Positions 22,267-61,106 of a DNA stretch of 64,000 bases are shown piece by piece. The stretch is taken from contig JAFVRJ010000027.1 in assembly GCA_017504305.1 (NCBI GenBank), forward strand, positions 4,172 through 68,171. The letters are read 5' to 3'. Position 1 is the stretch's first letter. Each line of letters opens with the position of its first letter. Below the pieces are notes generated by a model. That model saw only the letters and a program-made list of their open reading frames with translations, did not search any database and was not told where the DNA came from. The position numbers and the translations under genes were made by a program. The DNA is from Clostridia bacterium. Lineage in GTDB: Bacteria; Bacillota; Clostridia; Christensenellales; DTU072.

Positions 22267-24162
22267 ATGCCGGGACCGAGATCAGGAAAAATGGAAAAAC
22301 CGAAGAACCCCTTAAAGACCTTTAAGAAGATATTTAATTATATCGGAGCATACAAGTGGCAGTTGCTTATAGTAATATTTGCTACCATCGGATCGGTTGC
22401 AGCAAACCTCATAGGCACCTATATGCTCCAAAACGCACTTACAATCATCGAAACCTACGATGCTCTTACCGCTACCATAGAGGAAACGCTTGCAAGGCTT
22501 GCTTCTCAAGTAGGCATTATCATATGCGTATATTTGTCAGGCATATGTTGCACGGTATTGAGTAGTAGGTTGGTCCTAAACATCCAAACGGGCACTCTAC
22601 GTAAGTTCCGTGAGGACATGTTCGAGAAGATGGAGCGCCTACCTATTAGGTACTTTGATACTCGCACTAACGGTGAGATCATGGCAAGATACACCACTGA
22701 TACCGATGCCATCCGCGAAATGATTTCTAACGGTATCCCGTCGATTATCAACTCCTCGCTTACCATTATCGGCGCGTTTACCTTGATGCTTATTTTTAGC
22801 CCGCTTCTAACGCTTTTCGTTATCGGCATGTTAATTTTGATGCTTGTAGCAGTAACGATAGTAGGTGGCAAGGGTTCCAAGTACTTCATTAGACAACAAG
22901 CATCCATAGCAAACGTTAACGGATATATTGAAGAGTATATTAGCGGTCAAAAGGTAGTACAAGTTTTCTGTCGTGAAGATCAGGTCAAAGAGGGCTTTGC
23001 AAAACTCAACGACGAGCATTGCAAAACGGCAACCAGTGCTCAAACCTTTGCTCATATTCTCATGCCCATCATGGGTAACTTAAGCTATATCAACTACGTT
23101 GTAACCGCAGTAGTTGGTGCCGTATTGGTTGTCAACGGCAAGATGGACGGCGTAGCAACGCTAATTCCCTTCCTAACCTTATCCCGTCAGTTCTCGATGC
23201 CCTTGACTCAAATTTCACAACAATTCAACGGCATCCTCTCCGCTCTTGCGGGCGCCGAACGTATCTTTGCGCTTATGGAAGAGCCTCCGGAAGTAGATAA
23301 CGGTTACGTAACACTTGTTAACGCTATAATCGATGAGAACGGCAACGTCACCGAAAGCGCCGAGCGTACCGGCAAATGGGCGTGGAAGCACTATCATAAA
23401 GCCGACGATACCACCACATACGTGGAGCTTAAGGGCGCGGTAGAATTTGAAAACGTAGTCTTTGGCTACGAAGAGAATAAGACGGTTTTAAACGGCGTAT
23501 CACTTTATGCAAGACCGGGACAAAAAATTGCACTCGTTGGTTCGACCGGTGCCGGCAAAACCACCATCACCAACCTTATAAACCGCTTCTATGACGTACC
23601 GGATGGCAAAATCCGTTACGACGGAATAAACATCAATAAAATCAAAAAAGACGACCTTCGCAGATCTTTGGCGATGGTACTGCAAGATACCCATTTATTT
23701 ACCGGAACAGTACGCGAAAACATACGTTACGGTAACCTAAACGCAACTGACGAGCAAATTGAAAGGGCTGCAAAACTTGCAAACGCACACGACTTTATAA
23801 CCCTTATGCCCGATGGTTACGACACCATCATTAATGCAGACGGATCCAACCTTTCGCAAGGGCAACGGCAATTGCTATCAATTGCACGTGCAGCGGTCGC
23901 AGATCCTCCGGTACTTATACTTGACGAAGCTACAAGCTCCATCGACACCCGTACCGAAGCCCTCATCGAGCAGGGTATGGATAAGCTCATGGAAGGTCGT
24001 ACCGTATTTGTAATTGCTCACCGCCTTTCCATCGTTCGAAACGCGCACGCCATCCTCGTTATGGAAAACGGCCAAATTATCGAGCGTGGCAACCACGATC
24101 AACTCATCGCTCAACGCGGTAAGTATTATCAGCTCTATAACGGGATGTTCGAACTATCTTAG
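22267..24162 (+). CDS. ABC exporter, fused permease/ATPase (heterodimer partner 2)
   Basis: Walker A GSTGAGKTT, signature LSQGQRQL and Walker B ILDEATSSID. ATG 22267 follows a GGGGGTGGAG RBS directly after the partner's stop. Confidence 0.9.
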   Translation: MPGPRSGKMEKPKNPLKTFKKIFNYIGAYKWQLLIVIFATIGSVAANLIGTYMLQNALTIIETYDALTATIEETLARLASQVGIIICVYLSGICCTVLSSRLVLNIQTGTLRKFREDMFEKMERLPIRYFDTRTNGEIMARYTTDTDAIREMISNGIPSIINSSLTIIGAFTLMLIFSPLLTLFVIGMLILMLVAVTIVGGKGSKYFIRQQASIANVNGYIEEYISGQKVVQVFCREDQVKEGFAKLNDEHCKTATSAQTFAHILMPIMGNLSYINYVVTAVVGAVLVVNGKMDGVATLIPFLTLSRQFSMPLTQISQQFNGILSALAGAERIFALMEEPPEVDNGYVTLVNAIIDENGNVTESAERTGKWAWKHYHKADDTTTYVELKGAVEFENVVFGYEENKTVLNGVSLYARPGQKIALVGSTGAGKTTITNLINRFYDVPDGKIRYDGININKIKKDDLRRSLAMVLQDTHLFTGTVRENIRYGNLNATDEQIERAAKLANAHDFITLMPDGYDTIINADGSNLSQGQRQLLSIARAAVADPPVLILDEATSSIDTRTEALIEQGMDKLMEGRTVFVIAHRLSIVRNAHAILVMENGQIIERGNHDQLIAQRGKYYQLYNGMFELS

Positions 24163-24637
24163 ACCGCGTATAAGCTTCGCAATACTTCACAAATAAACAA
24201 AAACCCACTCGGTTATGTACGTTCAAGTACACTCCCGTCGTGGGTTTTTGTATTTGTTCGTCTTGCTCGCTTCTTCGCGGTCTAACCCCATACATAAGCT
24301 TCTCAATACAGCATAAAATAAAAACCCCACTTGGTCATGTACGCTCAAGTACGCTCCCGTCGTGGGGTTTTGTATTTGTTCGTCTTGCTTGCTTCTCCGC
24401 GGTCTACATCCTACTTAATACGCTTCGCAGTACCATATTAATAAACCAAACCCCACTTGGTCATGTACGTTCAAGTACGCTCCCGTCGTGGGTTTTTGTA
24501 TTTGTTCGTCTTGCTTGCTTCTCCGCAGTCTAACCCCATACATAAGCTTCTCAATACAGCATAAGCGTACGCATCAGTACGCTCCCATTTTGTGCTTTTT
24601 ATTTATATTTGTCTTGCTTGCACTTGACTGTCTACCT
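24160..24637 (+). repeat. Tandem hairpin-repeat array, locus 1 (3 full units plus a degenerate one, period about 118-128 bp)
   Basis: Hairpins at 24199-24249, 24321-24371 and 24448-24497 use AAAACCCCAC/GTGGGGTTTT-type stems with a loop core GTAC-N6-GTAC. Each is followed by a T-rich tail and the linker TTCGTCTTGCTYGCTTCTNCGCGGTCTA. The same family recurs at 59660-60336. Confidence 0.9.
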
Positions 24638-24707
24638 TTTATTGGGCTTTAGTAAAACCCAATAGGCTTAATTTTTACCCTTATAATCTATATTTTAAAG
24701 TTCACCG

Positions 24708-24727
24708 CTACGCGGTTGACCGCGTAG
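24708..24727. promoter_or_regulatory. Perfect 20-bp palindrome upstream of the lipoprotein promoter
   Basis: CTACGCGGT-TG-ACCGCGTAG. The half-site equals the CTACGCGGT(CTA) unit-end motif of the repeat family. Confidence 0.6.
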
Positions 24728-36555: not shown

Positions 36556-39500
36556 TTAGAACTTCAGATGATGCGGTCTCTTCTTGCGCTTTCTCGGTGA
36601 GAAGAAGGAGGGGAAGAAGGTAAAGAATATAATCAGCACGATGGCGATTATTAAGCCGATCTTGATGTATCCGCCCTTGAATTCGCCTACAAAGCCAATA
36701 CCTTCGAGGTCACCTGCGTTTTCGAGGGTGATTATGCCGTTTACCACTGCAAGATCTTTTACGCGGTATTTGCCCTTTTCCTTAACGACTACTTTTACGC
36801 TTTCCTTATCGGCATAAGCGGAGGGAACTTTGATTTGCATTACGCTATCGTCGCTTAATACGTCGTCGCCGTTAATATCGATTTCATAACCGATAACAAC
36901 GCGCTCGAGGGCGGTAAGGAGTCCGCTAATGGTGCTATTGGATTGCATCTTTTCGAGCTTGATGGTGGAGTCGGGGTGGAATCCGTTGTCAGACTCGATC
37001 ATGACGGAAAGATCTTCGCTTTGATGCTCGATGGTGAGTGAATAAATGGTTATGGTAACCATAACGGGGTCTGGCTCGGAATAGGTATCGGTAGCGTCTG
37101 CACGCAAGGTTACGATATATAGTCCGGGGCTTACGAAGGAGTTTTCGACCTCGTTTGAACCGAGATAGTATTTTATTTCTGCGCCACTTGAGCAAGTTGC
37201 TTCGATCACGTAAGCATTGCCGTTGTATACGAAGGATACGTCCGTATTGTCGACGCGGATTTTTGAGGGGTTACCGTAAATGCGGTAGGTAGCGGTGGTA
37301 ACCACCAAAGTATAGCACTCGTTGGTGCAAGTTGCATCGAGAGTATAGAAGCCTGCGATAGTACCTTCTTCTTTTGTGATTACGATGCCAACGTCCTCGT
37401 TATTGACTATGCTACCAGCGGTAATTGTGTAAGCGCTTTGGTCAACGATTATGGCTTCGCCGATAGTGGAGTATTGATCTTTAAGCGTTATGAAAATCTT
37501 ACGTTGAACGATAGTATAGGTACCGGGTGTGAACTCGATTGTGTAGTTATCGTTGTGGAGCGTTCCGATTAAGATGTCGTATCCACCGGGAACGGAGCCC
37601 GCTTCGCGTTCGAGAGAGCCTTCCAATTGCTCTTGACCAATTAGTGGAGTGGTGTCGTCAACAATGGGAGTAAGGGTGGCTTCGGGATCGCCGTATGCTA
37701 CGCTAACGTCTTGGGCGGTAACCTTAATGAAGTACGGTGAAATCGTGTAATTAAACGTGCCGTCTGCAAGCTTTACGTCATAGTTAGGATTGAGCTCGTT
37801 AAGGGTTCCGATGCTAATCGCATACTCACCTACGTTCGTGCCGTCAGCGCGTGCTAACTTACCGTCTAATTCACTTTCCGTAAAGGCGAGTGCGGTATTG
37901 GTATAGGTGATATCTGCATCTACAGAGCCGTATACGTGACCGACTCCGCTATCGGGGGTGACGATAACTTCTTTAGGAAGGATAGTGCAGTAAGCATCAT
38001 CGAGTTTTACAGAGTAGTTATCGTTATTCGAGCTTGCGAGGGAGATGGGATAGTCATTAACGTCTTCGCCAATTTCTCTTTGTAAAACGACTTCGAGCTC
38101 TACGTTGGGGATGCCGGTAGCAAGACTATATCCATACTTAATAGAGTAAGTAATAGTGCCGTCCTCATCGCCGTAGTTCTTTGTGAATCCAACGGGAACA
38201 ATGTAGATTTCGCGAGCAGTAACGGTATATTTTGCGCTAACGAAAGTAATGTTGTAGTTGGGGTTAAGCTCATTGGTAACGGTACCTTGTAATATGTTGT
38301 ATTCACCTGCGTCCGTACCTTCTTCGCGAGCGAGGTAACCGTTAAGTGATTCGTTACCAACCAAACCCACTACGTCAAAGCCCAATTCGTTTTGTTCTTC
38401 ACCAAAGATTTGGCTATCAGCTTTTGCGGTAACGGTGATATCTTTAGGAAGAATCTCGTATTTATCAACACCTGCACCATCCGCAATAGTGAACTCGTAG
38501 TTCGAGTTGAAAGCATATACGGTCAGTAAATCGTACAAGCCTTTTATCGTACCGGATTCGCGAGTGTAGTAAACGGTTACAACGTCATCGTGGAAGCCCG
38601 TTTCGATATCTTCAACAAGAAGTATTTCGTTTTCACCATAGGTGTTAACAAACTTTTTGGGAGTTACGGCATAAGGTCTAACGTTAATTGTGAATTTGCC
38701 GATTCCGCTATCCGTGGTCATGCTTGCGGTATAGTTTGCGCTATCGGTAATAACGTCTACAAAGTCGATAACAGTGCCGGCGTTTTCATTGGAAACGGCG
38801 TCTCTTAAGAAGATTACGTTGAGGGTTTCGCCGTTTAGTCCGTTTACCTCTTGCTTAAACTCGGGATCGTGGTCGCCGTAAAGTTTGCTATAAGCGTTGG
38901 GCGTTACGTCGCCGATATAATAGGGAGTAATCTTCAACTTAACGAGTATGGATGCTTCGTTATAGTTGGTCGTTTGGGCGGCGGTAAGGATGACGTCGTA
39001 GTATTCGCCGTCCGCTTTAACGTCTTTATAGCTTGCGTTTGCTTCAGCGGTCGTTTCGTTGTGGTTGAGGAGCGCCGTAGCGGTTTGGGAATTTGCATTG
39101 TAGATTAGCTCTAAATAGTGTGTGCCGTCAATAACGTTTGTGTTAACGGGCGTTATAACCGTATTAGCGCGGTTTATGACGTATTTTACACCCGTGGTGA
39201 AGGAAATATCGTAATTGAGGTTATTGGCGCTTGTGAGCGTTCCTGCAGTGATTTCGTAAGAGCCTGCAGTGCCGTCTTGATTACACTCGAGCGCACCGGA
39301 TAGGGGATATCCGCTAACGATAGCGTTACCCGTGGTGCCGGCACCGCCACTTACTTTGTAGTTAAGAGCTTGTTCGGCATCACCATAGGTGATAATCACT
39401 GCAACGGGAGTTATAGTTATGGGACGCTCGGTGATTACGTAATTAGCGCCAACGTAAGTGATATCGTAGTTAGCATTAGCTAACGTACCTTGGCTAATGG

Positions 39501-42500
39501 CGTAAGTGCCGACTATTTCGCCTACACCCCTTACGAGAGAGCCGGATAAAGTATCGTTGTTAACAATGCCTGCCGTGGTATATGAAAGCTCTTTTTCCGT
39601 TTCACCGAATACTTGAGTTTTACTATCGGCAGTAATCGTTAAGGGACGGGCTTCAAGAGTATACTTTCCGTTAACAAGAGTGATAGCATAGTTGCTGTTT
39701 TCAGCGTTGATTACGATATCGTAAGAGCCAACGCTCGAGTATTTTGTAACGGTAGAAGTAAAGGTTACGTTAAAGTCGTCGCCTGTTTTTTCGTTGCCAT
39801 CGGTGGAATAACCGAAATCCAATAAATCATCGCCGTATACGCTTGATTTATTTTTGGCGGTAATTGTTAAGGGACGAGGGGTAATATGATAGTAGTTGGT
39901 GTTAACTTTAACGGTATATTCGCCTGCATCGTAGTTTGCGGTAATTGAATAATCACCAACAACGTCACCGCTGTCACGAGAGAGTTGAACGTTAAGAGAA
40001 TCGATATTATCGCCATCTGCAAATACGCCTTGGTGAGTAAAGGTGAGTGCAACTGCTTCGTTGCCGTAAACTTGAGTTTTTTCCTCAATGCTTATAACTA
40101 TTATGCTTTCACCAATCGTATAAGTGCCTTCTACAAAAATAACTTCATAGTTCTCATTGGCACAAGTACCGGTGATATCATAGTCGCCTTTGGGCGAAGT
40201 TGAAGTCGCGGTGGTGGTTAAGGTTATTTCAAGGTCATCTTGGTTATAGATTTCACCTGCGGTAACGCGACCCGTTAACGTTTCGAGGCTAATACCATAG
40301 TTAGAAGCTTTATTATCAATGGTATAAGTAATGGGGGCAGGGGTGATGACGTAGCTACCTTTATTAAACGTAACATCGTAGTTTAGGTTACTATAGGTTG
40401 CGTTTGCGTTGGTCAAAATATAATCACCCGCATTTACGGGCATATTAACGTACGCGATATTAAGAACGCTTATAGGTTCGTCGTATGCCATTGCGTATCC
40501 ATCGGCAAGAGTAGGAGCGGGAGGTACAATAGCCAAGCCGTATTGACTTTCGCTGGAATTTAGATTTACGGTAATGGCTTTCTGGTTTACGGTGTAAGAG
40601 CCGTTTAAGAAGGTTACGTTGTAGTTAGCGTTATTAAAGCTTGCATCCGTTGCCTCAAGGACGTAAGTGCCTTGGTCTTTATTTGCATTTTGAGGTACGG
40701 TGATATTAAGTAGGTTAATATCTTCGCCATAGGCCATGCTAAAGCCGTCCGCAAGATCATAACCAATGGTTTGGAAAGGATCACCGTATGTTGAGCTACC
40801 ACTTCCAATTTGGATTGTAATCGCTTTAGCGCTAATCGTGTAAGTGCCGTTTTTTATGGTTACGTCGTAATTTGCGCTATTGCTGGTGCCGGTGATGTCG
40901 TAAGTACCAAAGCCCAAGCCGTCCTGCTTCGTAAGCGTTACGTCAAGGTCGGATTCATCATCGCCTGTAACTAAAGCTCCGTCAGTTATGGTTATAGTTA
41001 GGGGAGCAAACGCTTCGCCGTAAACAGAAGTCTTATCAGCAGCTTTTACGGTAATAGGCTTTTTAGTAATTGTATAAGTGCCCTTTGCCGTTGAGGCGTT
41101 GGTAACGTTGTAGTTCGTGCCGTCGCCGTTGTATGTTTTGACGGTAATATCATAAGTGTCAACGCCATAAGTGTCAACGCCTAAACCATCTGACGTTTGT
41201 AGCTCGATAGTGCCGAGGTCTGCAATAGTATTGCCGTTTACAAGATTGTTTGCAGTAAACGTTAGGGGTACAATGCTTTCGCCGTAAACGGAGGTCTTAT
41301 CAGCAATAGTAATCGTAACATCTCTCTTGGTGATAGTATAAGCACCGGTCGTTTTGGTGCCGTCTTCACTTGTAAAGCTTACGTCGTAATTAGTGCTTGT
41401 ACTTGTGCCGTTGATGTTGTACGTGCCAACGTTAGCCGTATTGGAAGCAATAGTAGTAAGACTAATTGCAAGAGCGCTTACTTCGTCTTTAACACCATCT
41501 ATGGTTGCGAGATCGTCGGGGTCATAAGTAAAGGTAAGTGACTCGATAACGTTGCCGTAAACAGAAGTCTTATCATCAACCGTTACGGTAATATGCTTTT
41601 GAGAAATGGTATAAATACCGGTATTGCTTGCGGTTACTACGTAGTTATTTGCCTTTAAGGACTTAGCAGTAATTCCGTAAGTGTCAACAGTATAGCCGGC
41701 GTCCCTTGCTAAAACAGCGGTTATTACGTCGATTGTATCGCCGTTAACAAGCTCGGTGGAGGATATGGTGAGTTGTGCATCATCTTGACCATAAACGTGG
41801 CCTGCATTGTTGATGGTGACGCTTATTGGGCGTTGATTGATTTTGTAAATGCCATTTGCTACGGTTATATCGTAGTTAGCACTCGTTGCGGAACCGGTTA
41901 TGTCGTAATCGGCAACGTTAGAAGTGTTAGTGGCAGTGGTGGTAAGTGTTACTTTGAGAACGGCTTCAGTATCGGTGTCACCATTTACAAGTGCGCCATT
42001 AGGGATCGTATAGGTCAGGGAAACTATATCATCGCCGTAGTCGGAAGATTTATTAACCGCATATATGGTAATCGCCTTTTTTGCGATGGTGTATGTGCCG
42101 GTCGTTTTGGTGCCGTCTTTACTTGTAAAGCTTACGGCGTAATTAGTGCTTGTACTTGAGCCGTTGATGTTGTACGTGCCAACGTTAGCCGTATTGGAAG
42201 CAATAGTAGTAAGACTAATTGCAAGAACGCTTACTTCGTCTTTGACACCATCTATGGTTGCAAGATCGTCGGGGTCATAAGTAAAGGTAAGTGGCTCGAT
42301 AACGTTGCCGTAAACAGAAGTCTTATCATCAACCGTTACGGTAACGGCTTTCTTCTCGATAACAAAATTGGTAGCTTGTAAGATTACGTTGTAGTTGGGG
42401 TTGGCAATAGTACCGAGGTTAAATGCATAATTTGCTACGGCTTCACCACTTGCTCTTTGGAAAGCTCCACTCAAAGCATCGCCATCGTATAAAGTACCAC

Positions 42501-44295
42501 TTGTTACGTTGTACGCACTAAAAACGGGGTCAACGTCGCCGTAGGTCTTTTGGACGTTGGTCGGCTCGACGGTCAAACTTGCTTGATTTACCGTAAAGGT
42601 TATACGTTCGCTATTTAAGGTGACGTAGAAGGGGTTTCCGGTTGTAAACAGGTTGTAATTTACGTTGACCGTGTTGCAGTACATCAAAGCCAAATTATAT
42701 TCGTCAAGAGTGGTTACAAGTTCTGCGGTATAGGTGCCGGCTTGTAGTCTTGCGTTTGAGTAATCATCGTTCCAACTTTCGTAAACAATATTGCCGTTTG
42801 CATTACGTATACGTACGGAAGCATTTTCGAAGCTGTTTGCGCGGTTTGTAGATGTAGATCCCGCCCAATAACCTACGCCACAGGTTGCTAAATTAGAATT
42901 AAGGCTTAAATCGGTATTTACGGAATTATTAGTATTATCGCGGATAGAAGCGACAATATCTTCAAGGTCGATATCGGAACTATAAGTATAAGTTGTGTTC
43001 GCAACGTGGATGGTAGCAATTTTACCAATTCTAACGTTAGCGAAAACGTTGGAAGTCGGTTCTGATTCTGATTTGTTGATTTTAAATAGAACGTCTACGC
43101 CGGCGCCAATATCCGATTTAGTACCGATAAATACAATACCGTCAGCACTACCGCCGGTTGCAAAAAGTTGGGTGTTTCCGTTATAACCGACGTGGCCGAT
43201 AACGTAATCGTCATTGCCGATGCTTGCCGAGAAACGTCCCTTTAAAACCAATATATCTTCGTTATTGGGATCAAAGCAAACTCTATCGACGTAAGCGTTA
43301 GCATTTGTAAACGTTACGCCATTATAGTTATTTGCCACCATAGTGCGGTAGACTTCTACCGTATTGGTAACGGTCGCACCGGTTGTAGTGGTGGTTCCGC
43401 TAAGCCCTTGGTTTTGAACGGAAGCATCGTTGTTATGCGACGTTCTGTTATCAAAATAATATAATTTATCAACGTTACAACTATTCCCGGCAGAAACAAT
43501 ATTTTTTGTTGTAGTTACGGAATATGGACCTGCTTCAAAAGTGCCCGTGAACCCCCAAACAAGGTCTTTACAATCAACGGTAGAGCCTAAATTATCGCCG
43601 ATGAAGCCACCTACTCGCACGGAAGTGGTGTCGGTCGTCTCGCTAAGACTTGAAGACGCTTTACCGCTTCCAAAAATAGAGCAACGCTCAAATAAAGTGT
43701 GCGTGGAACTAAATGAAGCAACACCAACAAACAAACCGAGGTTAGCATTGCCGCCGTAGTTCATGTTGCGTTGTAAACCATGTCCTACGCTGGAATTGTA
43801 TGCATCCATGATAAGAGTACAATCCGTTATTGAAGAAGTACCGGTAACCCTTCCAACAACACCACCCATGCCATCATGAGTTTTAGTGATTGCGTGGTAT
43901 CTTATACAAGAGCCGGCTTCATAAGTGATAGTACAATTATATAATGAAGCACCGCCTTCCATAAGACCGACGACTCCCCCAAAGCTACATGGGGACGTGT
44001 TGTTATAGTTACTATCTCCCCAATAATTTGTGTTTGAAGCAAACGCAACGTTGAGGTTTTTGATTGTACCGCCACTTAATACGTCGACGATCATTCCGGT
44101 GTTAAGTCGGTCGCCGGTTGTCATGCGCGTCCAGCTGGTGTCAATGGGATTAAGCTTTATGGTATGACCATTTCCATCTAAAACACCGCTAAACGTTACT
44201 TGACCATGAGTTCCAACAACGGGATACCAACCGTTTGATGCCGTAATATCGTTTGCAAGATAGTATTCACAGATACGGAATGAGCAGAACTTGAA
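36556..44295 (-). CDS. Giant surface protein, C-terminal frame (GLUG motifs, more than 20 MBG/YGX-type repeats, C-terminal TM anchor)
   Basis: The frame is open from 44295. The 57 codons upstream of the ORF-track ATG read EYYLANDITASNGWYPVVGTHGQVTFSGVLDGNGHTIKL, which is typical of GLUG-region modules. Repeats follow the pattern ...YG(D/E)...L(T/S)(Y/F)T...G(D/N)...G(T/E)Y.I...NY.V. The tail is IGLIIAIVLIIFFTFF...RKRKKR. Confidence 0.8.
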   Translation of the reverse strand, partial: FKFCSFRICEYYLANDITASNGWYPVVGTHGQVTFSGVLDGNGHTIKLNPIDTSWTRMTTGDRLNTGMIVDVLSGGTIKNLNVAFASNTNYWGDSNYNNTSPCSFGGVVGLMEGGASLYNCTITYEAGSCIRYHAITKTHDGMGGVVGRVTGTSSITDCTLIMDAYNSSVGHGLQRNMNYGGNANLGLFVGVASFSSTHTLFERCSIFGSGKASSSLSETTDTTSVRVGGFIGDNLGSTVDCKDLVWGFTGTFEAGPYSVTTTKNIVSAGNSCNVDKLYYFDNRTSHNNDASVQNQGLSGTTTTTGATVTNTVEVYRTMVANNYNGVTFTNANAYVDRVCFDPNNEDILVLKGRFSASIGNDDYVIGHVGYNGNTQLFATGGSADGIVFIGTKSDIGAGVDVLFKINKSESEPTSNVFANVRIGKIATIHVANTTYTYSSDIDLEDIVASIRDNTNNSVNTDLSLNSNLATCGVGYWAGSTSTNRANSFENASVRIRNANGNIVYESWNDDYSNARLQAGTYTAELVTTLDEYNLALMYCNTVNVNYNLFTTGNPFYVTLNSERITFTVNQASLTVEPTNVQKTYGDVDPVFSAYNVTSGTLYDGDALSGAFQRASGEAVANYAFNLGTIANPNYNVILQATNFVIEKKAVTVTVDDKTSVYGNVIEPLTFTYDPDDLATIDGVKDEVSVLAISLTTIASNTANVGTYNINGSSTSTNYAVSFTSKDGTKTTGTYTIAKKAITIYAVNKSSDYGDDIVSLTYTIPNGALVNGDTDTEAVLKVTLTTTATNTSNVADYDITGSATSANYDITVANGIYKINQRPISVTINNAGHVYGQDDAQLTISSTELVNGDTIDVITAVLARDAGYTVDTYGITAKSLKANNYVVTASNTGIYTISQKHITVTVDDKTSVYGNVIESLTFTYDPDDLATIDGVKDEVSALAISLTTIASNTANVGTYNINGTSTSTNYDVSFTSEDGTKTTGAYTITKRDVTITIADKTSVYGESIVPLTFTANNLVNGNTIADLGTIELQTSDGLGVDTYGVDTYDITVKTYNGDGTNYNVTNASTAKGTYTITKKPITVKAADKTSVYGEAFAPLTITITDGALVTGDDESDLDVTLTKQDGLGFGTYDITGTSNSANYDVTIKNGTYTISAKAITIQIGSGSSTYGDPFQTIGYDLADGFSMAYGEDINLLNITVPQNANKDQGTYVLEATDASFNNANYNVTFLNGSYTVNQKAITVNLNSSESQYGLAIVPPAPTLADGYAMAYDEPISVLNIAYVNMPVNAGDYILTNANATYSNLNYDVTFNKGSYVITPAPITYTIDNKASNYGISLETLTGRVTAGEIYNQDDLEITLTTTATSTSPKGDYDITGTCANENYEVIFVEGTYTIGESIIVISIEEKTQVYGNEAVALTFTHQGVFADGDNIDSLNVQLSRDSGDVVGDYSITANYDAGEYTVKVNTNYYHITPRPLTITAKNKSSVYGDDLLDFGYSTDGNEKTGDDFNVTFTSTVTKYSSVGSYDIVINAENSNYAITLVNGKYTLEARPLTITADSKTQVFGETEKELSYTTAGIVNNDTLSGSLVRGVGEIVGTYAISQGTLANANYDITYVGANYVITERPITITPVAVIITYGDAEQALNYKVSGGAGTTGNAIVSGYPLSGALECNQDGTAGSYEITAGTLTSANNLNYDISFTTGVKYVINRANTVITPVNTNVIDGTHYLELIYNANSQTATALLNHNETTAEANASYKDVKADGEYYDVILTAAQTTNYNEASILVKLKITPYYIGDVTPNAYSKLYGDHDPEFKQEVNGLNGETLNVIFLRDAVSNENAGTVIDFVDVITDSANYTASMTTDSGIGKFTINVRPYAVTPKKFVNTYGENEILLVEDIETGFHDDVVTVYYTRESGTIKGLYDLLTVYAFNSNYEFTIADGAGVDKYEILPKDITVTAKADSQIFGEEQNELGFDVVGLVGNESLNGYLAREEGTDAGEYNILQGTVTNELNPNYNITFVSAKYTVTAREIYIVPVGFTKNYGDEDGTITYSIKYGYSLATGIPNVELEVVLQREIGEDVNDYPISLASSNNDNYSVKLDDAYCTILPKEVIVTPDSGVGHVYGSVDADITYTNTALAFTESELDGKLARADGTNVGEYAISIGTLNELNPNYDVKLADGTFNYTISPYFIKVTAQDVSVAYGDPEATLTPIVDDTTPLIGQEQLEGSLEREAGSVPGGYDILIGTLHNDNYTIEFTPGTYTIVQRKIFITLKDQYSTIGEAIIVDQSAYTITAGSIVNNEDVGIVITKEEGTIAGFYTLDATCTNECYTLVVTTATYRIYGNPSKIRVDNTDVSFVYNGNAYVIEATCSSGAEIKYYLGSNEVENSFVSPGLYIVTLRADATDTYSEPDPVMVTITIYSLTIEHQSEDLSVMIESDNGFHPDSTIKLEKMQSNSTISGLLTALERVVIGYEIDINGDDVLSDDSVMQIKVPSAYADKESVKVVVKEKGKYRVKDLAVVNGIITLENAGDLEGIGFVGEFKGGYIKIGLIIAIVLIIFFTFFPSFFSPRKRKKRPHHLKF

Positions 44296-56955: not shown

Positions 56956-59673
56956 ATGAAGGTAAGGACTCTTATTTGCGTATTGGCTATTGCGGTAGTT
57001 GCTTCAGTGGCCGTAGCCGCAGCTTTTGCCACCGATCCCGACGTAGGTATGCGTTTGATAGTACCTAAAGATTGGGAGCTGGAAATCGGTGATTCTCGTA
57101 CGGTTGATTACGTTTTTGATGATGAGACGGTTACAAACCGCAAATTGACGTGGACTACTTCTAACGAAGAGGTGGCTACGGTTGACAAGTGGGGGCGTGT
57201 AACCGCTGTCGGTAAGGGCAAGGCATACGTTTATGCCGAAACCTCCGATGGTCTCAAAGCTAAAGCAAGGTTAAATGCAGTTGAGGTATCGACGGTTAAC
57301 CAAGTTGCCACTACTAAAATCGACTATAAAGGCAACGCAGTAACACTTGGTGCCAATCTTCAAAAGGTGGTAACGCGTTACGAAAGTGCTATAGTCAGTG
57401 AATCTACTGCGATTCCCACGGCTGTCAAAGAAGCGTTTGTAAGCGGTGTTTACACCGACATGAACGTGGCAACGACGGCAGATGGAGCCGTTTGGGAGAT
57501 AGTTTCTTACGGCGTACTTCGCACCGACGATAACGCACTTGATGCTCGCGATAAAGTTCAACGCTTTATGGGCGATAGATATTTCTTCTCAAAAGATACC
57601 ACAACCGGTAACGTTCTCGGTATATATGCCGACGGAGAAAACGGTATATGGACTATAATGGCAGGTGGCGTCACTCACATCGAGATGCTTAAAATCAACG
57701 GCACCGATAAGGCCGCGATGATGGTGAAAAGCACCCAAGACTACGTAATGAGACACGGCTACGTGGCGGAAAGTTACTATAACGGCTCTAACGATACTTG
57801 GAAGCCGGTTGAGTCTGATAACGATGGTTTATGGACTTCGATGTACGCAGCCGGTGAACTTATGAGATACGCATCTTTGAAGAAGTCCGGTACGGCTACT
57901 CCCGCTGAAATTGCTGCCGCCAGAGAATCTGCAATGGTTTCTACCGAAGCAGTACTTCTTTTATCCAATATAGTTATGCGTAAAGGAACGGTTGAAGCTT
58001 ACGTTCGTTACCAACCCAACGGACGTTACGACGAGTTCCCGTATGGTAGCAATACCGCAAACGGCAGATATCACTCGGCAGATGCGCTCGAAAAGGGTGG
58101 CGACAACTCTCTTAACGTTCCTGCGGTAAGCCCTGCGGAAGCCTTTGAAATCGCTTACAATGCTTATCTTGAAGACGGCACCATGACCTATTTCCTCGTT
58201 GACGGATACCTTGAGCCCTTTATTCAAGAGGATTGGTCCAACCCCATCGTTAACGAAGACGGCTCCGTAACCTACGAAACTCGCACTCGTAATTTGGAAG
58301 GATATATTGCTCGTACCTATTCCGTAGCCTCCGAAAACAATATTCCCGACGGATATATTCATTACCAATTTGAACGTGACGAAGAGGGCAACTTGATTGC
58401 ACGCGGTGTATCCACGATGAAGGAACACGAAGGCGGTTATTATCTTAACGGTGAAAACTTGAGAGGTGTTGAAGTCGATGCTTCCGGCGAAATCCCCCAA
58501 AGATTGTGGGACGATTTGGTAGATGCAGGCGCTATTGCAAGCGACACCGATATTACCGACATCTTCTATAAAGGCGACACCAGTTCGGATGAAATAATAG
58601 GGCATTTATTCCTCTACAAAATAGCATACGATATTTTAGGACAAGAGGATGCCGAAATCAAAAAGATAATTGCAAACACAATGGACCGTTTTGCTCAACA
58701 TATTACCGATAACGGATATATGATGGTAGATGCCACCGGTCAACCCGGAACGTGGTCCAAATTCAACAGAGAGTTCTTCTACAATAGCTCTCAACTTGGT
58801 GGCGCGCCCTTGACGGCATCGGTAGCACTTTGTGCCTTCAAAGTAGCATATTACGTAACCGGCAACGTTAAGTGGCAAAACGAGTATATGATGGCGGCCC
58901 TTGACCCTGCATATGAATATGCAAAGCTCATGACCAAGTATTCCGAGCAATGCTATATGTACATGATGCTACTCTTAAACGAGTACCTTGAGGAATATAC
59001 GGGAGGCTTACTCAATCTCGAAGCAATCGTCGATGGGTTGGGACTTGACGTAAGTCCTGATTCCGATCTTACCGAGATGCTCAAGAGACTGTTTATCAAC
59101 TACTCTGATGAAGAGATGGCAATGCTTGCATACTACCTCTTATTCCAATTGGAAACTGACGAAACCTTACTTAATTACTATCGTGAGGGCCTTAACGATT
59201 GGTGGGAGTCGATATCCTATTCCGAAAACCCCTTATGGTATTATATCTATCAACTTGCTTACCCCAACGAAACCATCCTTGATAGATACGGTAATAACAT
59301 TTTGGAAACCGCTGCATGGCAATTATCTCGCCATCCCATAGATACCCGTCAATACAACGCATCCAATGGTAATCGTGACGATATAGACATCCTCGATTTG
59401 TCCTCACTCGGCGGAACGCAATTGAGCTTTAGAGCACAAGAGGGTATTGAAATCGATTTAAGCGGTGTAGCAGGTATCTTTAGCGCCCTTCAAGATGGGC
59501 CTTCGCTCGAGTGGACCGTTGCTCCTGCCGATGAGAGAGCGCTCCATAAATATAACGGTCCGACTTACCGTCTTGAAACCGATTACAATCCCAACTGCAT
59601 GGAAGGCTCTACTACCTACACTTTGCCTTATTGGTTAGGTGTGTATCACAATATGTTGGTAGACCGCGGATAA
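56956..59673 (+). CDS. Secreted Big_2 (Ig-like) domain protein with a large uncharacterised, possibly alpha/alpha-toroid, region
   Basis: Signal peptide present. Big_2-like segment LTWTTSNEEVATVDKWGRVTAVGKGKAYVYA. The rest is helical-repeat-like (DNDGLWTSMYAAGELMRY). The last three codons and the stop lie inside the repeat family's 5' block. Confidence 0.5.
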   Translation: MKVRTLICVLAIAVVASVAVAAAFATDPDVGMRLIVPKDWELEIGDSRTVDYVFDDETVTNRKLTWTTSNEEVATVDKWGRVTAVGKGKAYVYAETSDGLKAKARLNAVEVSTVNQVATTKIDYKGNAVTLGANLQKVVTRYESAIVSESTAIPTAVKEAFVSGVYTDMNVATTADGAVWEIVSYGVLRTDDNALDARDKVQRFMGDRYFFSKDTTTGNVLGIYADGENGIWTIMAGGVTHIEMLKINGTDKAAMMVKSTQDYVMRHGYVAESYYNGSNDTWKPVESDNDGLWTSMYAAGELMRYASLKKSGTATPAEIAAARESAMVSTEAVLLLSNIVMRKGTVEAYVRYQPNGRYDEFPYGSNTANGRYHSADALEKGGDNSLNVPAVSPAEAFEIAYNAYLEDGTMTYFLVDGYLEPFIQEDWSNPIVNEDGSVTYETRTRNLEGYIARTYSVASENNIPDGYIHYQFERDEEGNLIARGVSTMKEHEGGYYLNGENLRGVEVDASGEIPQRLWDDLVDAGAIASDTDITDIFYKGDTSSDEIIGHLFLYKIAYDILGQEDAEIKKIIANTMDRFAQHITDNGYMMVDATGQPGTWSKFNREFFYNSSQLGGAPLTASVALCAFKVAYYVTGNVKWQNEYMMAALDPAYEYAKLMTKYSEQCYMYMMLLLNEYLEEYTGGLLNLEAIVDGLGLDVSPDSDLTEMLKRLFINYSDEEMAMLAYYLLFQLETDETLLNYYREGLNDWWESISYSENPLWYYIYQLAYPNETILDRYGNNILETAAWQLSRHPIDTRQYNASNGNRDDIDILDLSSLGGTQLSFRAQEGIEIDLSGVAGIFSALQDGPSLEWTVAPADERALHKYNGPTYRLETDYNPNCMEGSTTYTLPYWLGVYHNMLVDRG

Positions 59674-60336
59674 GCTTCGCAATACTTCATAAATAAACAA
59701 AACCCCACTCGGTCATGTACGTTCAAGTACACTCCCGTCGTGGGGTTTTGTATTTATTCGTCTTGCTCGCTTCTACGCGGTCTAATCCCACGCATAAGCT
59801 TCACAATACTTCATCAAACAGGCGCACCCCCTCAATCACGTACGACCAAGTACGCTCATATCGGGGAGTGCGCCGTTTTCTTCGTCTTGCTCGCTTCTAC
59901 GCGGTCTACATCCTACACAAGGGCTTTACACTATACTCGGTCATGTACGTTCAAGTACGCTCATATCGGGGAGTGTGCCGTTTTCTTTGTCTTGCTTGCT
60001 TCTACGCGGTCTAATCCCACGCATAGGCTTCACAATACTTCATCAAACAGGCGTACCCCCTCAATCACGTACGACCAAGTACGCTCATATCGGGGAGTGC
60101 GCCGTTTTCTTTGTCTTGCTTGCTTCTCCGCGGTCTAACCCCATGTATAGGCTTTACAATATACTCGGTCACGTACGTTCAAGTACGCTCCCATTGGGGG
60201 CTTTTTATTTTTGTTTGTCTTGCTCGGTTCTCTGCTGTCTAAACGCACGCATAGGCTTCACAATACTTCATAAATAAACAAAGCCTCCCTACAGTTGCGT
60301 ACAATTTGTACACTCCAATTGGGGAGGCTTTTTTAT
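59660..60336 (+). repeat. Tandem hairpin-repeat array, locus 2 (about 6 units, three stem classes)
   Basis: Hairpins at 59699-59749, 59821-59874, 59921-59979, 60050-60103, about 60187-60200 (degenerate) and 60281-60330. The loop core GTAC-N6-GTAC and the linker ...GTCTTGCTYGCTTCTNCGCGGTCTA are shared with locus 1. Confidence 0.9.
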
Positions 60337-60353
60337 TATCAAAATAATGCTCG

Positions 60354-61106
60354 TTATCCCAGCAATACGTCCATTAGTAGCATCACCGCAAAACCAAATA
60401 GCAAAGCAAACGTTGCGCCACTTTGGGCTCCGTGAGCGTGAGTTTCGGGTATCATTTCATCGCTTACAACGTAAAGCATAGTACCGCCGGCAAAGGCAAG
60501 AGCAAAAGGTAAAATTACCGTTGCTATGTTGACGGCAAAGAATCCTATAAGCGTACCTACTACTTCTACAAGACCGGTTAAAAGGGCGATTAAGAATACC
60601 TTGCCTCTCTTTATGCCTGCATTAAGCATTGGTGCGATTATAACCATGCCCTCGGGTATGTTTTGTAAAGCGATACCAGCAGCGATAATAAGAGCTTGCG
60701 TGTTATTGCCGGAGCCAAACCCAACACCTGCAGCGATACCTTCCGGTAGATTGTGTATGCCTATTGCAAGCACAAAAAGCATAACCTTATCGATGTTGGT
60801 TTTCTTATGTGGCTCAATATCGGGCTCGCTGATTTTGTGCAGGTGCGGTACAAGTTTATCTATAAGATATAGCACCAATGCGCCTACAAAAATACCGCCG
60901 ATGGTAATAAGTAACTTGTACTCACCACCATACTCTAAAGAGGGCACTATTAAACCGAAAATGGCGGCAGCAAGCATTACGCCCGCAGCAAACGAAAGTA
61001 CAATATCCGAAAACTTGTGGGATATGTTTTTAAATATAAATCCGATTCCGGCGCCGATAACGGTTGCGCCACCTACGCCGAGAGCTGTTAATAATACCAT
61101 TTCCAT
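60354..61106 (-). CDS. ZIP-family divalent metal (zinc) transporter
   Basis: HNLPEGIA and QNIPEG motifs and a multi-TM profile. The start is ATG 61106 or TTG 61118. Confidence 0.85.
   Translation of the reverse strand: MEMVLLTALGVGGATVIGAGIGFIFKNISHKFSDIVLSFAAGVMLAAAIFGLIVPSLEYGGEYKLLITIGGIFVGALVLYLIDKLVPHLHKISEPDIEPHKKTNIDKVMLFVLAIGIHNLPEGIAAGVGFGSGNNTQALIIAAGIALQNIPEGMVIIAPMLNAGIKRGKVFLIALLTGLVEVVGTLIGFFAVNIATVILPFALAFAGGTMLYVVSDEMIPETHAHGAQSGATFALLFGFAVMLLMDVLLG

Follow-up and report, generated by a model that had tools for sequence, protein, structure and literature searches.

Two tandem arrays of structured repeats on the + strand of the window, i.e., the 64,000-nt stretch of Clostridia bacterium DNA analysed here, are composed of units that are, on balance, best interpreted as copies of a non-coding, non-autonomous, mobile palindromic element of ~125 nt. 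The element resembles MITE and REP sequences and would constitute a 3′-end module (hairpin and U-tract) whose tip is a putative recognition site; we infer both a partner protein and a function for it. It belongs to a family that is large, almost undescribed, and found across bacterial phyla. Array B (59660-60344) comprises six head-to-tail units (125, 124, 105, 124, 104, and 103 nt) between the gene of a secreted 905-aa Big_2 protein and a convergent ZIP gene, as an earlier note on this DNA had described in outline, although the end of the reading frame (its last four codons and TAA, 59671-59673) lies within unit B1 and a sister array of four units (array A, 24160-24636) had been missed. The first triplet of array A, and thus of unit A1 (24160-24162), is TAG, the stop codon of an ABC-transporter gene; the orthologs of this gene all have 631 aa and all end in ...FELS. 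Both window arrays thus begin at stop codons, and solitary unit copies were found nowhere else in the window.

Table 1. Coordinates of array units, a related palindrome, and flanking genes in the window.
Feature	Position	Strand	Description
ABC transporter gene	22267..24162	+	631 aa; upstream of array A
Unit A1	24160..24284	+	Intact rod; -53.9 kcal/mol, z -10.1; covariance model 143.1 bits
Unit A2	24285..24406	+	Class A stem; left terminus degenerate
Unit A3	24407..24532	+	Class A stem; left terminus degenerate, CATCCTAC type
Unit A4	24533..24636	+	Left arm deleted; linker degenerate; decayed distal unit
Palindrome CTACGCGGT-TG-ACCGCGTAG	24708..24727		Resembles the remnant of a junction at which the right terminus of one unit met the left terminus of another
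Big_2-domain protein gene	56956..59673	+	905 aa, secreted; upstream of array B
Unit B1	59660..59784	+	Intact 125-nt palindromic rod; MFE -55.4 kcal/mol, z -11.2; covariance model 144.8 bits
Unit B2	59785..59908	+	Class B stem GGCGCACCCCC/GGGGAGTGCGCC, then T-tract; z -4.75
Unit B3	59909..60013	+	About 21 nt of left stem arm deleted; right arm class B; z -0.27
Unit B4	60014..60137	+	Class B; nearly identical to B2; C-to-T at 60054, giving G.U
Unit B5	60138..60241	+	Left stem arm deleted; linker degenerate; z -0.39
Unit B6	60242..60344	+	Class C stem AAAGCCTCCC/GGGAGGCTTT and T6; z -5.3
ZIP zinc transporter gene	60354..61106	-	250 aa from MEMV...; convergent

The unit is the whole imperfect palindrome of ~125 nt. 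Briefly, a copy consists of an outer stem of terminal inverted repeats (TIRs), a mid-arm with conserved mismatches, an inner stem of 10-17 bp, the sequence of which is free provided that pairing holds, and a conserved tip. The segments previously termed linker and tail are the two arms of the outer stem and pair with each other; the linker (GTCTTGCTYGCTTCTNCGCGGTCTA) is indeed conserved, with 8 matches in the window vs 0 in shuffles, and the tail motif, although not a separate tail, is non-random, as is the loop motif. End-to-end folding is observed in the first unit of each array (A1 and B1), the only intact ones, in which the TIRs are 16-17 nt long and 88% complementary; in B1, they are TAGACCGCGGATAAGC / GCTTCTACGCGGTCTA, the inner stem is ACAAAACCCCAC/GTGGGGTTTTGT, and the apex is TCATGTACGTTCAAGTACACTC. 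In interior units, the left repeats are degenerate (ATCCCACGC in B2) and helix 1 is 66% paired. The right termini of these units are canonical and the left termini non-canonical, which is not predicted by simple decay. The left terminus of A3 represents the same junction type as B2|B3.

The long hairpin formerly ascribed to every unit is not always kept: B3, B5, and A4 lack the left arm of ~21 nt, and 5/13 units are broken or chimeric. Folding of B3 and B5 is no better than that of shuffles; B3 contains no real hairpin, and B5 contains a small alternative hairpin (GCTCCCattGGGGGC) with a T-run. The stem class GGC(ttt)ACACT/AGTGTGCC that had been assigned to B3 is spurious, its left arm having been lost, and the real stem classes number three (AAAACCCCAC, GGCGCACCCCC, and AAAGCCTCCC). 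Likewise, the motif GTAC-N6-GTAC is not common to all classes, since the apex of B6 is GTAC-N5-GTAC. The hexaloop sequence is itself variable, and constancy is confined to the YGTAC/GTACR stem and its flanks, so that the tip is TCA-[YGTAC-loop-GTACR]-CTC(C). B6, from which the right outer arm is absent, probably serves the convergent ZIP gene as a bidirectional terminator and would end both convergent genes. A coding array was rejected: it is traversed by open reading frames of 99-132 aa, yet the lengths of its units are not divisible by three, and the sole "homolog" in databases is itself an array annotated by mistake as a gene.

Pairing within the units is actively kept through compensatory change, and the complementarity of variable stems claimed in the earlier note is thus borne out. 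Among the 13 local units, paired cells amount to 79.8% as compared with 30-48% with slid partners, and 14 pairs show double changes; in 141 related sequences, the corresponding values are 84.6% and 30-41%, with 41/44 pairs compensatory, although pairs 41-145 and 42-143 of that alignment are mostly unpaired. The seven sites differing between A1 and B1 resolve into two compensatory pairs and three loop positions, and complementarity is 0.70 between a copy's own arms and 0.38 between families. When representatives of many taxa were aligned with MAFFT and analysed with RNAalifold, only the 5-bp apical stem was recovered because arm registers differ; per-sequence folding, arm-against-arm alignment, and covariance-model alignment were therefore used instead. 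The C/T difference between the copies at 59821 and 60050, yielding a G-U pair on the + strand, is present in the sequence; its interpretation as a sign of plus-strand RNA does not generalise, because G.U and A.C mismatches in the arms are equally frequent (268 vs 288), so that nothing there marks RNA rather than DNA as the selected form. Furthermore, unpaired strand-specific features, i.e., TCA/CTC of the tip, a T.C mismatch, and a left-arm bulge, are kept across divergent families.

The conserved strand-specific features and the lack of a G.U excess are also compatible with single-stranded DNA recombination sites (attC-like or HUH/Y1 substrates), in which case the units would be empty cassettes stacked at a fixed entry point and their RNA properties incidental. 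Similarly to the units, attC sites are imperfect palindromes (57-141 nt) directly after ORFs, with conserved unpaired bases marking one strand; the presumed newest array member occupies the proximal position, which is also the case in cassette arrays, the 5′ end of the element overlaps a stop codon, which also holds for many attC sites, and the right end GTCTAAC fits RYYYAAC. We nevertheless regard this possibility as unlikely. The arrangement is the reverse of that of attC, which conserves its ends (R''/R') and varies its centre, whereas the centre is conserved and the termini vary here; copies are dispersed behind unrelated genes rather than at one platform; and orientation follows the upstream gene, with a sense-strand T-tract asymmetry. 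No transposase or integrase was found in the window (Pfam scans of 30 ORFs, with precomputed Pfam hits covering the rest), and neither an integrase nor a transposase, Y1 or other, was found beside ~200 copies. Integron attC sites proper, which require IntI and an attI platform, neither of which is present here, were rejected because no IntI was found and because their core sites (5′-RYYYAAC ... GTTRRRY-3′) are arranged inversely to the unit ends (TTAGAC...GTCTAA).

The breadth of the family was revealed by the tip, the productive database probe. Matches to the 22-nt tip TCAYGTACGNYCAAGTACRCTC were found in 103 stretches of genomes and 95 of metagenomes, as compared with ~2 expected by our own calculation (596 Gb x 2 / 4^19.5), with a range over Clostridia, Proteobacteria, Thermodesulfobacteriota, Chlorobi, and Bacteroidota. 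With few exceptions, the tip lies at the apex of a 120-150-nt rod, the arms of which differ yet stay complementary; the apex is enclosed by a median of 47 bp, and the range of arm lengths is narrow (50-54 nt). A covariance-model search, as proposed earlier, yielded full-length matches to the model of the local units from Christensenellales (80-94 bits) down to Proteobacteria. Related units occupy dozens of loci per MAG and are present in other phyla, and their termini differ between lineages, whereas the centre is conserved across phyla; that the loop is "recognised by something", as had been suggested, is therefore a fair inference. The linker 25-mer had 0 matches in public genome and metagenome contig collections, indicating that the species is not in those collections. 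A phage or plasmid origin was rejected, as plasmids and phages gave no match and viral contigs 0 matches. Near the ~200 copies, no conserved neighbouring gene was found; the largest clusters of shared neighbours were ABC ATPases, dehydrogenases, and syntenic housekeeping genes.

For one branch of the family, a name already exists. The sX9 RNA (Rfam RF02228) is a northern-verified 75-nt RNA of Xanthomonas (Schmidtke et al., 2012; PMC3300014) that is present in multiple copies and has been annotated widely (PMC9029176). sX9 is the right half of the Xanthomonas element and represents the Xanthomonadales branch of the family: its model starts with the same tip (AUGUAC...GUACACUCCGG) and then follows the right arm of a rod with the same architecture, although it spans only the tip and right arm of the Xanthomonadales version. 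A Dyella humi copy retrieved with the window tip motif scores 73.7 bits to sX9 (gathering score 44), the sX9 model could be aligned, tip included, to the L064 copy, and B1 and A1 carry (T/C)ATGTACGTTCAAGTACACTCCCG, corresponding to AUGUAC-loop-GUACA followed by CUCCGG. The earlier remark that the repeat is not recognisable as a named family consequently holds for the window units, which match no Rfam family at gathering score (at E<=10, 59600-60400 gave noise, without sX9), but not for this branch. The branch, together with the MITE-like anatomy of the units (a palindromic repeat with TIRs), touches the two outcomes, an IS or MITE end and an Rfam match, that had been named as refuting the earlier idea. 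The sX9 model did not match the tested Beta- and Alphaproteobacterial, Thermodesulfobacteriota, and Clostridia copies. In the parts of the sX9 literature available to us, it is described as an sRNA and not as half of a palindromic repeat, and no description of the family beyond sX9 was found in the literature, including that on MITE/REP/stop-codon associations and Bru-RS1.

The discrete sX9 RNA, the tip conserved across phyla, and the strong hairpin with a T-tract in each unit would agree with tandem sRNA genes in the style of LhrC/Qrr, each unit being its own gene for a ~60-120-nt hairpin RNA with the tip as a trans-acting seed or protein-binding loop. This interpretation appears improbable. 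No sigma-70-like promoter was detected on the + strand of either array (0 vs 1.7 expected at locus 2, array B), the one such site at locus 1 (array A) being on the minus strand, and the units abut one another and the upstream stop codon, pointing to co-transcription as a 3′ UTR. Moreover, the whole unit, supposed promoter region included, is one palindrome, copy number and unit content vary between strains, and broken units are frequent.

The mobile-element reading is further characterized by a polar association with stop codons. The element sits at, or a few bases from, the stop codon of a gene in sense orientation: the left terminus of the rod has the stop codon of the sense upstream gene within -5..+3 nt in 30/71 cases, whereas the right terminus coincides with a stop codon in 1/39, and the upstream ORF runs in the direction of the element in 95 cases and against it in 46. 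The T-richness of the right arm exceeds the A-richness of the left in 94 rods, and the reverse applies to 11; proteobacterial members lack a strong T-tract. In the window, a stem with a T-run is present in A1-A3, B1, B2, B4, and B6. A terminator consensus scan called only short alternative hairpins and missed the long ones because the main "loop" is 31 nt. If transcribed with the upstream gene, an intact unit would fold into a long hairpin whose 3′ shoulder is U-rich solely on the sense strand, and could therefore act as a terminator or 3′-end-protecting module. As a point against a terminator role, six tandem terminators would be redundant.

Filled and empty sites were both observed among strains and relatives. 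At locus A, two relatives (L211 and L215; ABC ortholog at 86-87% protein identity) are empty, with TAA, 15-27 nt, and then a simple terminator, whereas in L209 (92%) the array begins at the same TAG; locus B is empty in L008 and L010. The sites are filled in the window, L209, and L214. Insertion at locus A fits a TA duplication within the native TAA, turning it into TAG, with an eroded right junction. Target-site duplications are clear in some families, i.e., TA/CTAG (L022, L057, and L100), TGA (L064), and CTGA (L052), whereas other families show none clearly. Array content also turns over: L214, a strain of the same species (99%), has a different array at locus A, resembling B1-B4-B5 and joined directly to the right half of the palindrome at 24708..24727, and in L004 (98.4% over 10 kb), there are 3 units, the arms of which are chimeric. 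Such copy-number variation, the TRF periods of 126 and 229, and the ABAB block structure of array B, in which B2-B3 and B4-B5 form a 229-nt duplicated block, could also be explained if a gene's terminator region had simply been duplicated in tandem on the spot, i.e., by a VNTR without mobility or special recognition. This explanation is very hard to sustain, since the same unit occurs at two unlinked window loci and related ones in other phyla, empty sites carry an unrelated plain terminator, and the units have TIRs. Separately, capture of the native locus A terminator as the origin of the class B stem was not supported; the two share CGCACTC/GAGTGCG, although their local alignment (p 0.2-0.5) is no better than that of shuffles.

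In most arrays, the gene-proximal unit scores highest. For a mobile element, we envisage that new copies enter at the stop codon, the proximal unit being youngest and intact, and that older units would be pushed downstream and then decay, while recombination via the conserved tip and termini may duplicate, delete, and exchange units between arrays. The invariant tip and the arm length of 50-54 nt might provide a handle for a trans-acting protein recognising the folded element, which could be a transposase/nuclease acting on a single-stranded hairpin or an RNA-binding/processing factor. More speculatively, and in our view with a rather small chance of being correct, the family may be an ancient cross-phylum mobile system, of which a putative enzyme binds the folded single-strand tip, measures ~50-60 bp down the rod, cuts the base, and inserts copies directionally where translation stops; such an enzyme would account for paired but freely varying arms, narrow arm lengths, the polar stop-codon junction, and arrays with young proximal units. 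An enzyme acting on DNA cannot read frames, and the association with stop codons is mechanistically unexplained by it.

Among known repeats, MITEs and palindromic repeats (Correia/NEMIS, ERIC/IRU, RUP, BOX, and Nezha) resemble the units in length (100-170 nt), TIRs, whole-length hairpins, non-coding, multicopy, and intergenic nature, co-transcription with neighbouring genes, and the apparent TA-type target at locus A. However, MITEs conserve termini rather than the centre, and the strict polar link of the left end to stop codons and the head-to-tail arrays distinguish the units. REP/BIME and REPIN-RAYT systems share hairpin repeats at gene 3′ ends, clustered copies, presumed single-strand recognition by an enzyme encoded elsewhere, and proposed roles in termination and mRNA stability. 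By contrast, a REP measures 20-40 nt and has a GTAG or CGTC head, whereas the unit is a single 125-nt palindrome; REPINs conserve two flanking inverted REPs around a variable spacer rather than the loop; BIMEs alternate in orientation, whereas the present arrays are direct; and no RAYT was seen in the window or near copies. Mycobacterial MIRU-type VNTRs are likewise tandem intergenic units (50-100 nt) oriented with flanking genes, with ends overlapping stop codons and strain-variable copy number, but they are not long palindromes, carry small ORFs for translational coupling, and are genus-specific. Intrinsic terminators share with classes A, B, and C a GC-rich stem followed by a sense-strand T-run, whereas the units additionally have the structured, conserved "loop", an extra outer stem, tandem copies, and presumed mobility; the earlier view that the structure exceeds the needs of a plain terminator is shared here.

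If this interpretation is correct, the orphan sRNA annotations of sX9 and unannotated intergenic repeats of many phyla, at present scattered, are united by a common recognition tip as one family of mobile 3′-end modules. The targeting rule (sense orientation, left end on the stop codon) is unexplained and sharp enough for direct testing, and could expose a new transposition mechanism or a link of translation termination to DNA/RNA transactions. The arrays are likely rearrangement hotspots in gut/rumen Christensenellales-like bacteria, and, as they vary among strains of a single species, they are useful as markers for typing. Furthermore, they generate spurious gene calls and break short-read assemblies: independent short-read assemblies break within array B, the sequence of which is identical among them.

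The repeat arrays at the two loci are a real, structured and fast-evolving feature of the window, and each is assembled from units that form one imperfect palindrome of ~125 nt, here termed the rod, in which two complementary arms enclose a conserved 22-nt hairpin end, the tip. The locus B array begins within the final codons of the gene for a 905-aa secreted Big_2-domain protein, the TAA stop of which (59671-59673) is located inside unit B1, and 9 nt separate the array's end from the stop of the convergent ZIP transporter gene. The conserved pieces described in the earlier note as linker, loop and tail are genuine and non-random: the linker has eight matches in the window and none in shuffled sequences, and enrichment also holds for the loop and tail motifs. 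Searches of the window with nhmmer and a covariance model found no further unit copies outside the two arrays. Independent short-read assemblies of the same organism are identical in sequence, and their contigs break within the arrays.

Arrays and neighboring features in the window
Feature	Position	Strand	Description
Locus A sister array	24160-24636		four units (A1-A4); first triplet TAG is the ABC-transporter stop codon
Short palindrome	24640-24664		TATTGGGCTTTA-g-TAAAACCCAATA
Perfect palindrome	24708-24727		CTACGCGGT-TG-ACCGCGTAG, ~70 nt beyond array A
871-aa protein	24811-27426		Listeria-Bacteroides repeats, BspA-type LRR and transglutaminase core
2522-aa ORF	36556-44124	-	identical gene in L005 has a precomputed MBG_2 Pfam hit
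Locus B array	59660-60344	+	six direct head-to-tail units (B1-B6) of 125, 124, 105, 124, 104 and 103 nt
Array-crossing ORFs	59715-60277		

The tail (TAGACCGCGnATAAGCTTCGCAATAC) is complementary to the linker (GTCTTGCTCGCTTCTnCGCGGTCTA), a relation previously overlooked, and the two constitute terminal inverted repeats of 16-17 nt. In both arrays, the first unit folds along its whole length into a single rod (B1, -55.4 kcal/mol, z -11.2; A1, -53.9 kcal/mol, z -10.1), and the minimum free energy (MFE) of the first unit in a related strain is -52.2 kcal/mol. From the outside inward, the unit starts with an outer stem and a short stretch whose mismatches are fixed, followed by a 10-17-bp inner stem with a T-run on its 3′ side, a small internal loop with TCA on the 5′ side and CTC(C) on the 3′ side, and a 5-bp apical stem (YGTAC/GTACR) around a loop of 5-7 nt. 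Interior units retain the right terminus CGCGGTCTA, and their left termini are non-canonical. B3, B5, and A4 lack the inner stem's left arm of ~21 nt, and the folding of B3 and B5 is at shuffle level; therefore, the third stem class proposed earlier is the product of a truncated unit, and three real classes (A, B, and C) are left. An intact hairpin is present in 8 of the 13 local units, and a chimeric unit in a related strain joins a class A left arm to a class B right arm. Beyond array A, the perfect palindrome reads like the right-terminus/left-terminus junction of two units with the rest deleted, and the shorter palindrome between the array and this relic junction may have been left by the native terminator or by a further, decayed unit.

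Pairing between the arms is actively maintained. Seven positions separate units A1 and B1: two compensatory pairs (C.G to T.A and A.T to C.G) account for four of them, and the remaining three are unpaired sites. Across the 13 local units, pairing holds in 79.8% of cells compared with 30-48% when partners are slid, double changes are found in 14 pairs, and the observed covariation score was reached by no shuffle. On the alignment of the family-wide matches to the covariance model, pairing holds in 84.6% of cells compared with 30-41% when slid, and a compensatory change is found in 41 of 44 pairs; as a caveat, this alignment was fitted to that model. The one-step change that had been read as preserving pairing only through G-U in a transcript is present in the sequence; family-wide, however, G.U mismatches (268) are as common as A.C mismatches (288), and the arms thus do not tell RNA from DNA as the selected form. 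In the first unit of the 92% relative (L209 4893-5106), the otherwise invariant apical stem TGTAC/GTACA is changed to TTTAC/GTAAA, with both sides altered and pairing kept. Pairs 41-145 and 42-143 of the model alignment are mostly unpaired, and a T.C mismatch within AATAC/GTCTT (or AATAAC/GTTCTT) is kept unpaired in very different lineages, e.g., L040 6124-6248, L027 1926-2048, and B1.

The tip is conserved across phyla. The exact linker was absent from 185,579 species genomes and the JGI metagenomes, whereas the 22-nt tip TCAYGTACGNYCAAGTACRCTC was found in 103 stretches from genomes and 95 from metagenomes against a chance expectation of ~2 (596 Gb x 2 strands / 4^19.5); it was not found in 2.9 million viral contigs. 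Among its carriers are Christensenellales and other Clostridia MAGs, Ochrobactrum-type Brucella, Rhizobiaceae, Betaproteobacteria, Xanthomonadales (Dyella, Rudaea, and Wenzhouxiangella), Thermodesulfobacteriota, Desulfobacteraceae, Chlorobiaceae, Holosporales, and one Bacteroidaceae bin. In nearly all carriers, the tip is the apex of a 120-150-nt rod (medians, 47 bp enclosing the apex and MFE -56 kcal/mol), with arms of 50-54 nt in most lineages and ~60-65 nt in Proteobacteria. The arms are unrelated between lineages but complementary to their own partner (0.70 for self and 0.38 across families). A covariance model built from the 13 local units only, searched against the window and 99 fetched loci, gave 143 full-length matches, from 80-94 bits in Christensenellales and Candidatus Scatosoma down to 25-35 bits in Proteobacteria, and none in the element-free relatives L008-L010. 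Rods found without the exact motif indicate variable loop letters, with the YGTAC/GTACR stem and its TCA/CTC(C) flanks constant. Distant lineages also share unpaired mid-arm motifs, YTGYGTCRA in the left arm and CTTTCCTTG / GCGCCTTG in the right arm. The exact 22-mer also occurs without a surrounding rod in Solirubrobacterales (L014 4596-4617, within ~100 nt of a phage-type integrase gene) and Nitrospiraceae (L016 1031-1052); these rodless tips may have arisen by chance or may reflect another role for the motif.

Placement of the rods is polar with respect to stop codons. Of the copies that lie outside ORFs, 95 have an upstream gene in the same orientation and 46 one in the opposite orientation, and the distance from stop codon to motif has a sharp peak at 40-70 nt, the length of the left arm. 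Of 71 unique rods, 30 have the upstream gene's stop codon at -5..+3 nt and 46 at -20..+15 nt relative to the left terminus; at the right terminus, measured to a convergent gene's stop, the counts are 1 and 3 of 39, respectively. This placement is alike in Clostridia, Thermodesulfobacteriota, and Proteobacteria. No gene is linked to the family, as neither a recurring protein family nor a transposase was found beside the copies. T-richness of the right arm exceeds A-richness of the left arm in 94 rods and the opposite is found in 11; therefore, a U-rich shoulder follows the inner hairpin on the sense strand only.

The window arrays are a Christensenellales-type, array-form member of this broad palindromic-repeat family, of which sX9 (Rfam RF02228) is the only catalogued branch. 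The Dyella copy is a bona fide sX9 match (73.7 bits; gathering score, 44), and the sX9 model corresponds exactly to the tip and right arm of the rod; it matches neither the window's units nor the tested copies outside Xanthomonadales. In Xanthomonas, sX9 is a northern-verified RNA of 75 nt (PMC3300014), and it ranks among the most often annotated bacterial "sRNAs" (PMC9029176). That the units are independent sRNA genes is unlikely, because the arrays lack promoters, the units directly adjoin stop codons, and one palindrome takes up the entire unit. A limited literature search found no description of the rod, the family, or the placement, and an earlier description is possible.

Insertion polymorphism and strain-level turnover are evident when related genomes are compared. 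ABC-transporter orthologs of 84% to 100% identity are all 631 aa long and end in ...FEL(S/T), and the locus A element therefore starts exactly at the native stop position. In orthologs of 86-87% identity the site is empty, with TAA followed by 15-27 nt, a plain terminator, and the promoter of the next gene, whereas in the 92% relative an array is already present and begins at the same TAG; the TAA-to-TAG change fits an insertion duplicating TA inside the stop codon. Locus B is likewise empty in L008 and L010, and here the insertion lies a few codons ahead of the native end, such that the ORF now stops within the element. The 905-aa protein ends in VDRG*, encoded by the left end of the element (59660-59673), and a 66%-identical ortholog without the element (P0014; L009 3745-3763) ends in VDRGE* with other codons; the shared ending is probably a coincidence, target-site homology being the other possibility. 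In strain L214, whose ABC protein is 99% identical, the locus A array is a different one, similar to B1-B4-B5 of the window and joined directly to the right half of the perfect palindrome (...GCAGTACCGCGTAGAAAT). In L004 (9903-10620, compared with window 59660-60353), the upstream 10 kb is 98.4% identical, three units replace six, and the downstream genes are SecA-prfB-serS with no ZIP, which could reflect either a true rearrangement at the array or misjoining through the repeat into a chimeric megahit contig. Further arrays that start at a stop codon and lead with their best-preserved unit occur in L018/L119, L145, L045, L027, L043, L059, L012, and L033. A terminator duplicated purely locally is contradicted by the dispersal of the family and by the empty sites. 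The native terminator at empty locus A sites (L211 4920-4950 and L215 3915-3945) is AAACGCACTC-loop-GAGTGCGTTTTTT and has a 7-bp stem core, CGCAC(T)C/GAGTGCG, in common with the class B stem (59821-59874); units might acquire local terminator stems, but the whole-region alignment is at shuffle level.

The arrays are best filed with the MITE/REP kind of palindromic mobile repeats. New copies would arrive at the stop codon and displace older ones downstream, and recombination via the conserved tip and termini could shuffle arms and exchange blocks between arrays. The tip and the narrow range of arm length may serve as a recognition handle for a putative trans-acting protein. For the mobilization step, single-stranded DNA recombination sites (attC- or HUH-like) are a viable alternative, although tests for attC membership were negative. 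In a sense transcript, the hairpin and U-tract might act as a terminator or 3′-end stabilizer. Because termini and apparent duplications vary between lineages but the tip and placement do not, either a single structure-guided mechanism operates in all lineages or selection imposes the placement. Two unexplained properties are worth pursuing: the conserved center with free termini and the polar placement at stop codons.

ORFs of 99-167 aa cross the arrays, in the window and in L004 (10001-10504, P0001). A public metagenome annotation lists one of these as a gene, which is the sole database "homolog" of the ORF crossing the window's array; this gene call looks like an annotation artefact due to the repeat. 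The 2522-aa and 871-aa proteins are large surface proteins of a Christensenellales-like gut or rumen bacterium.
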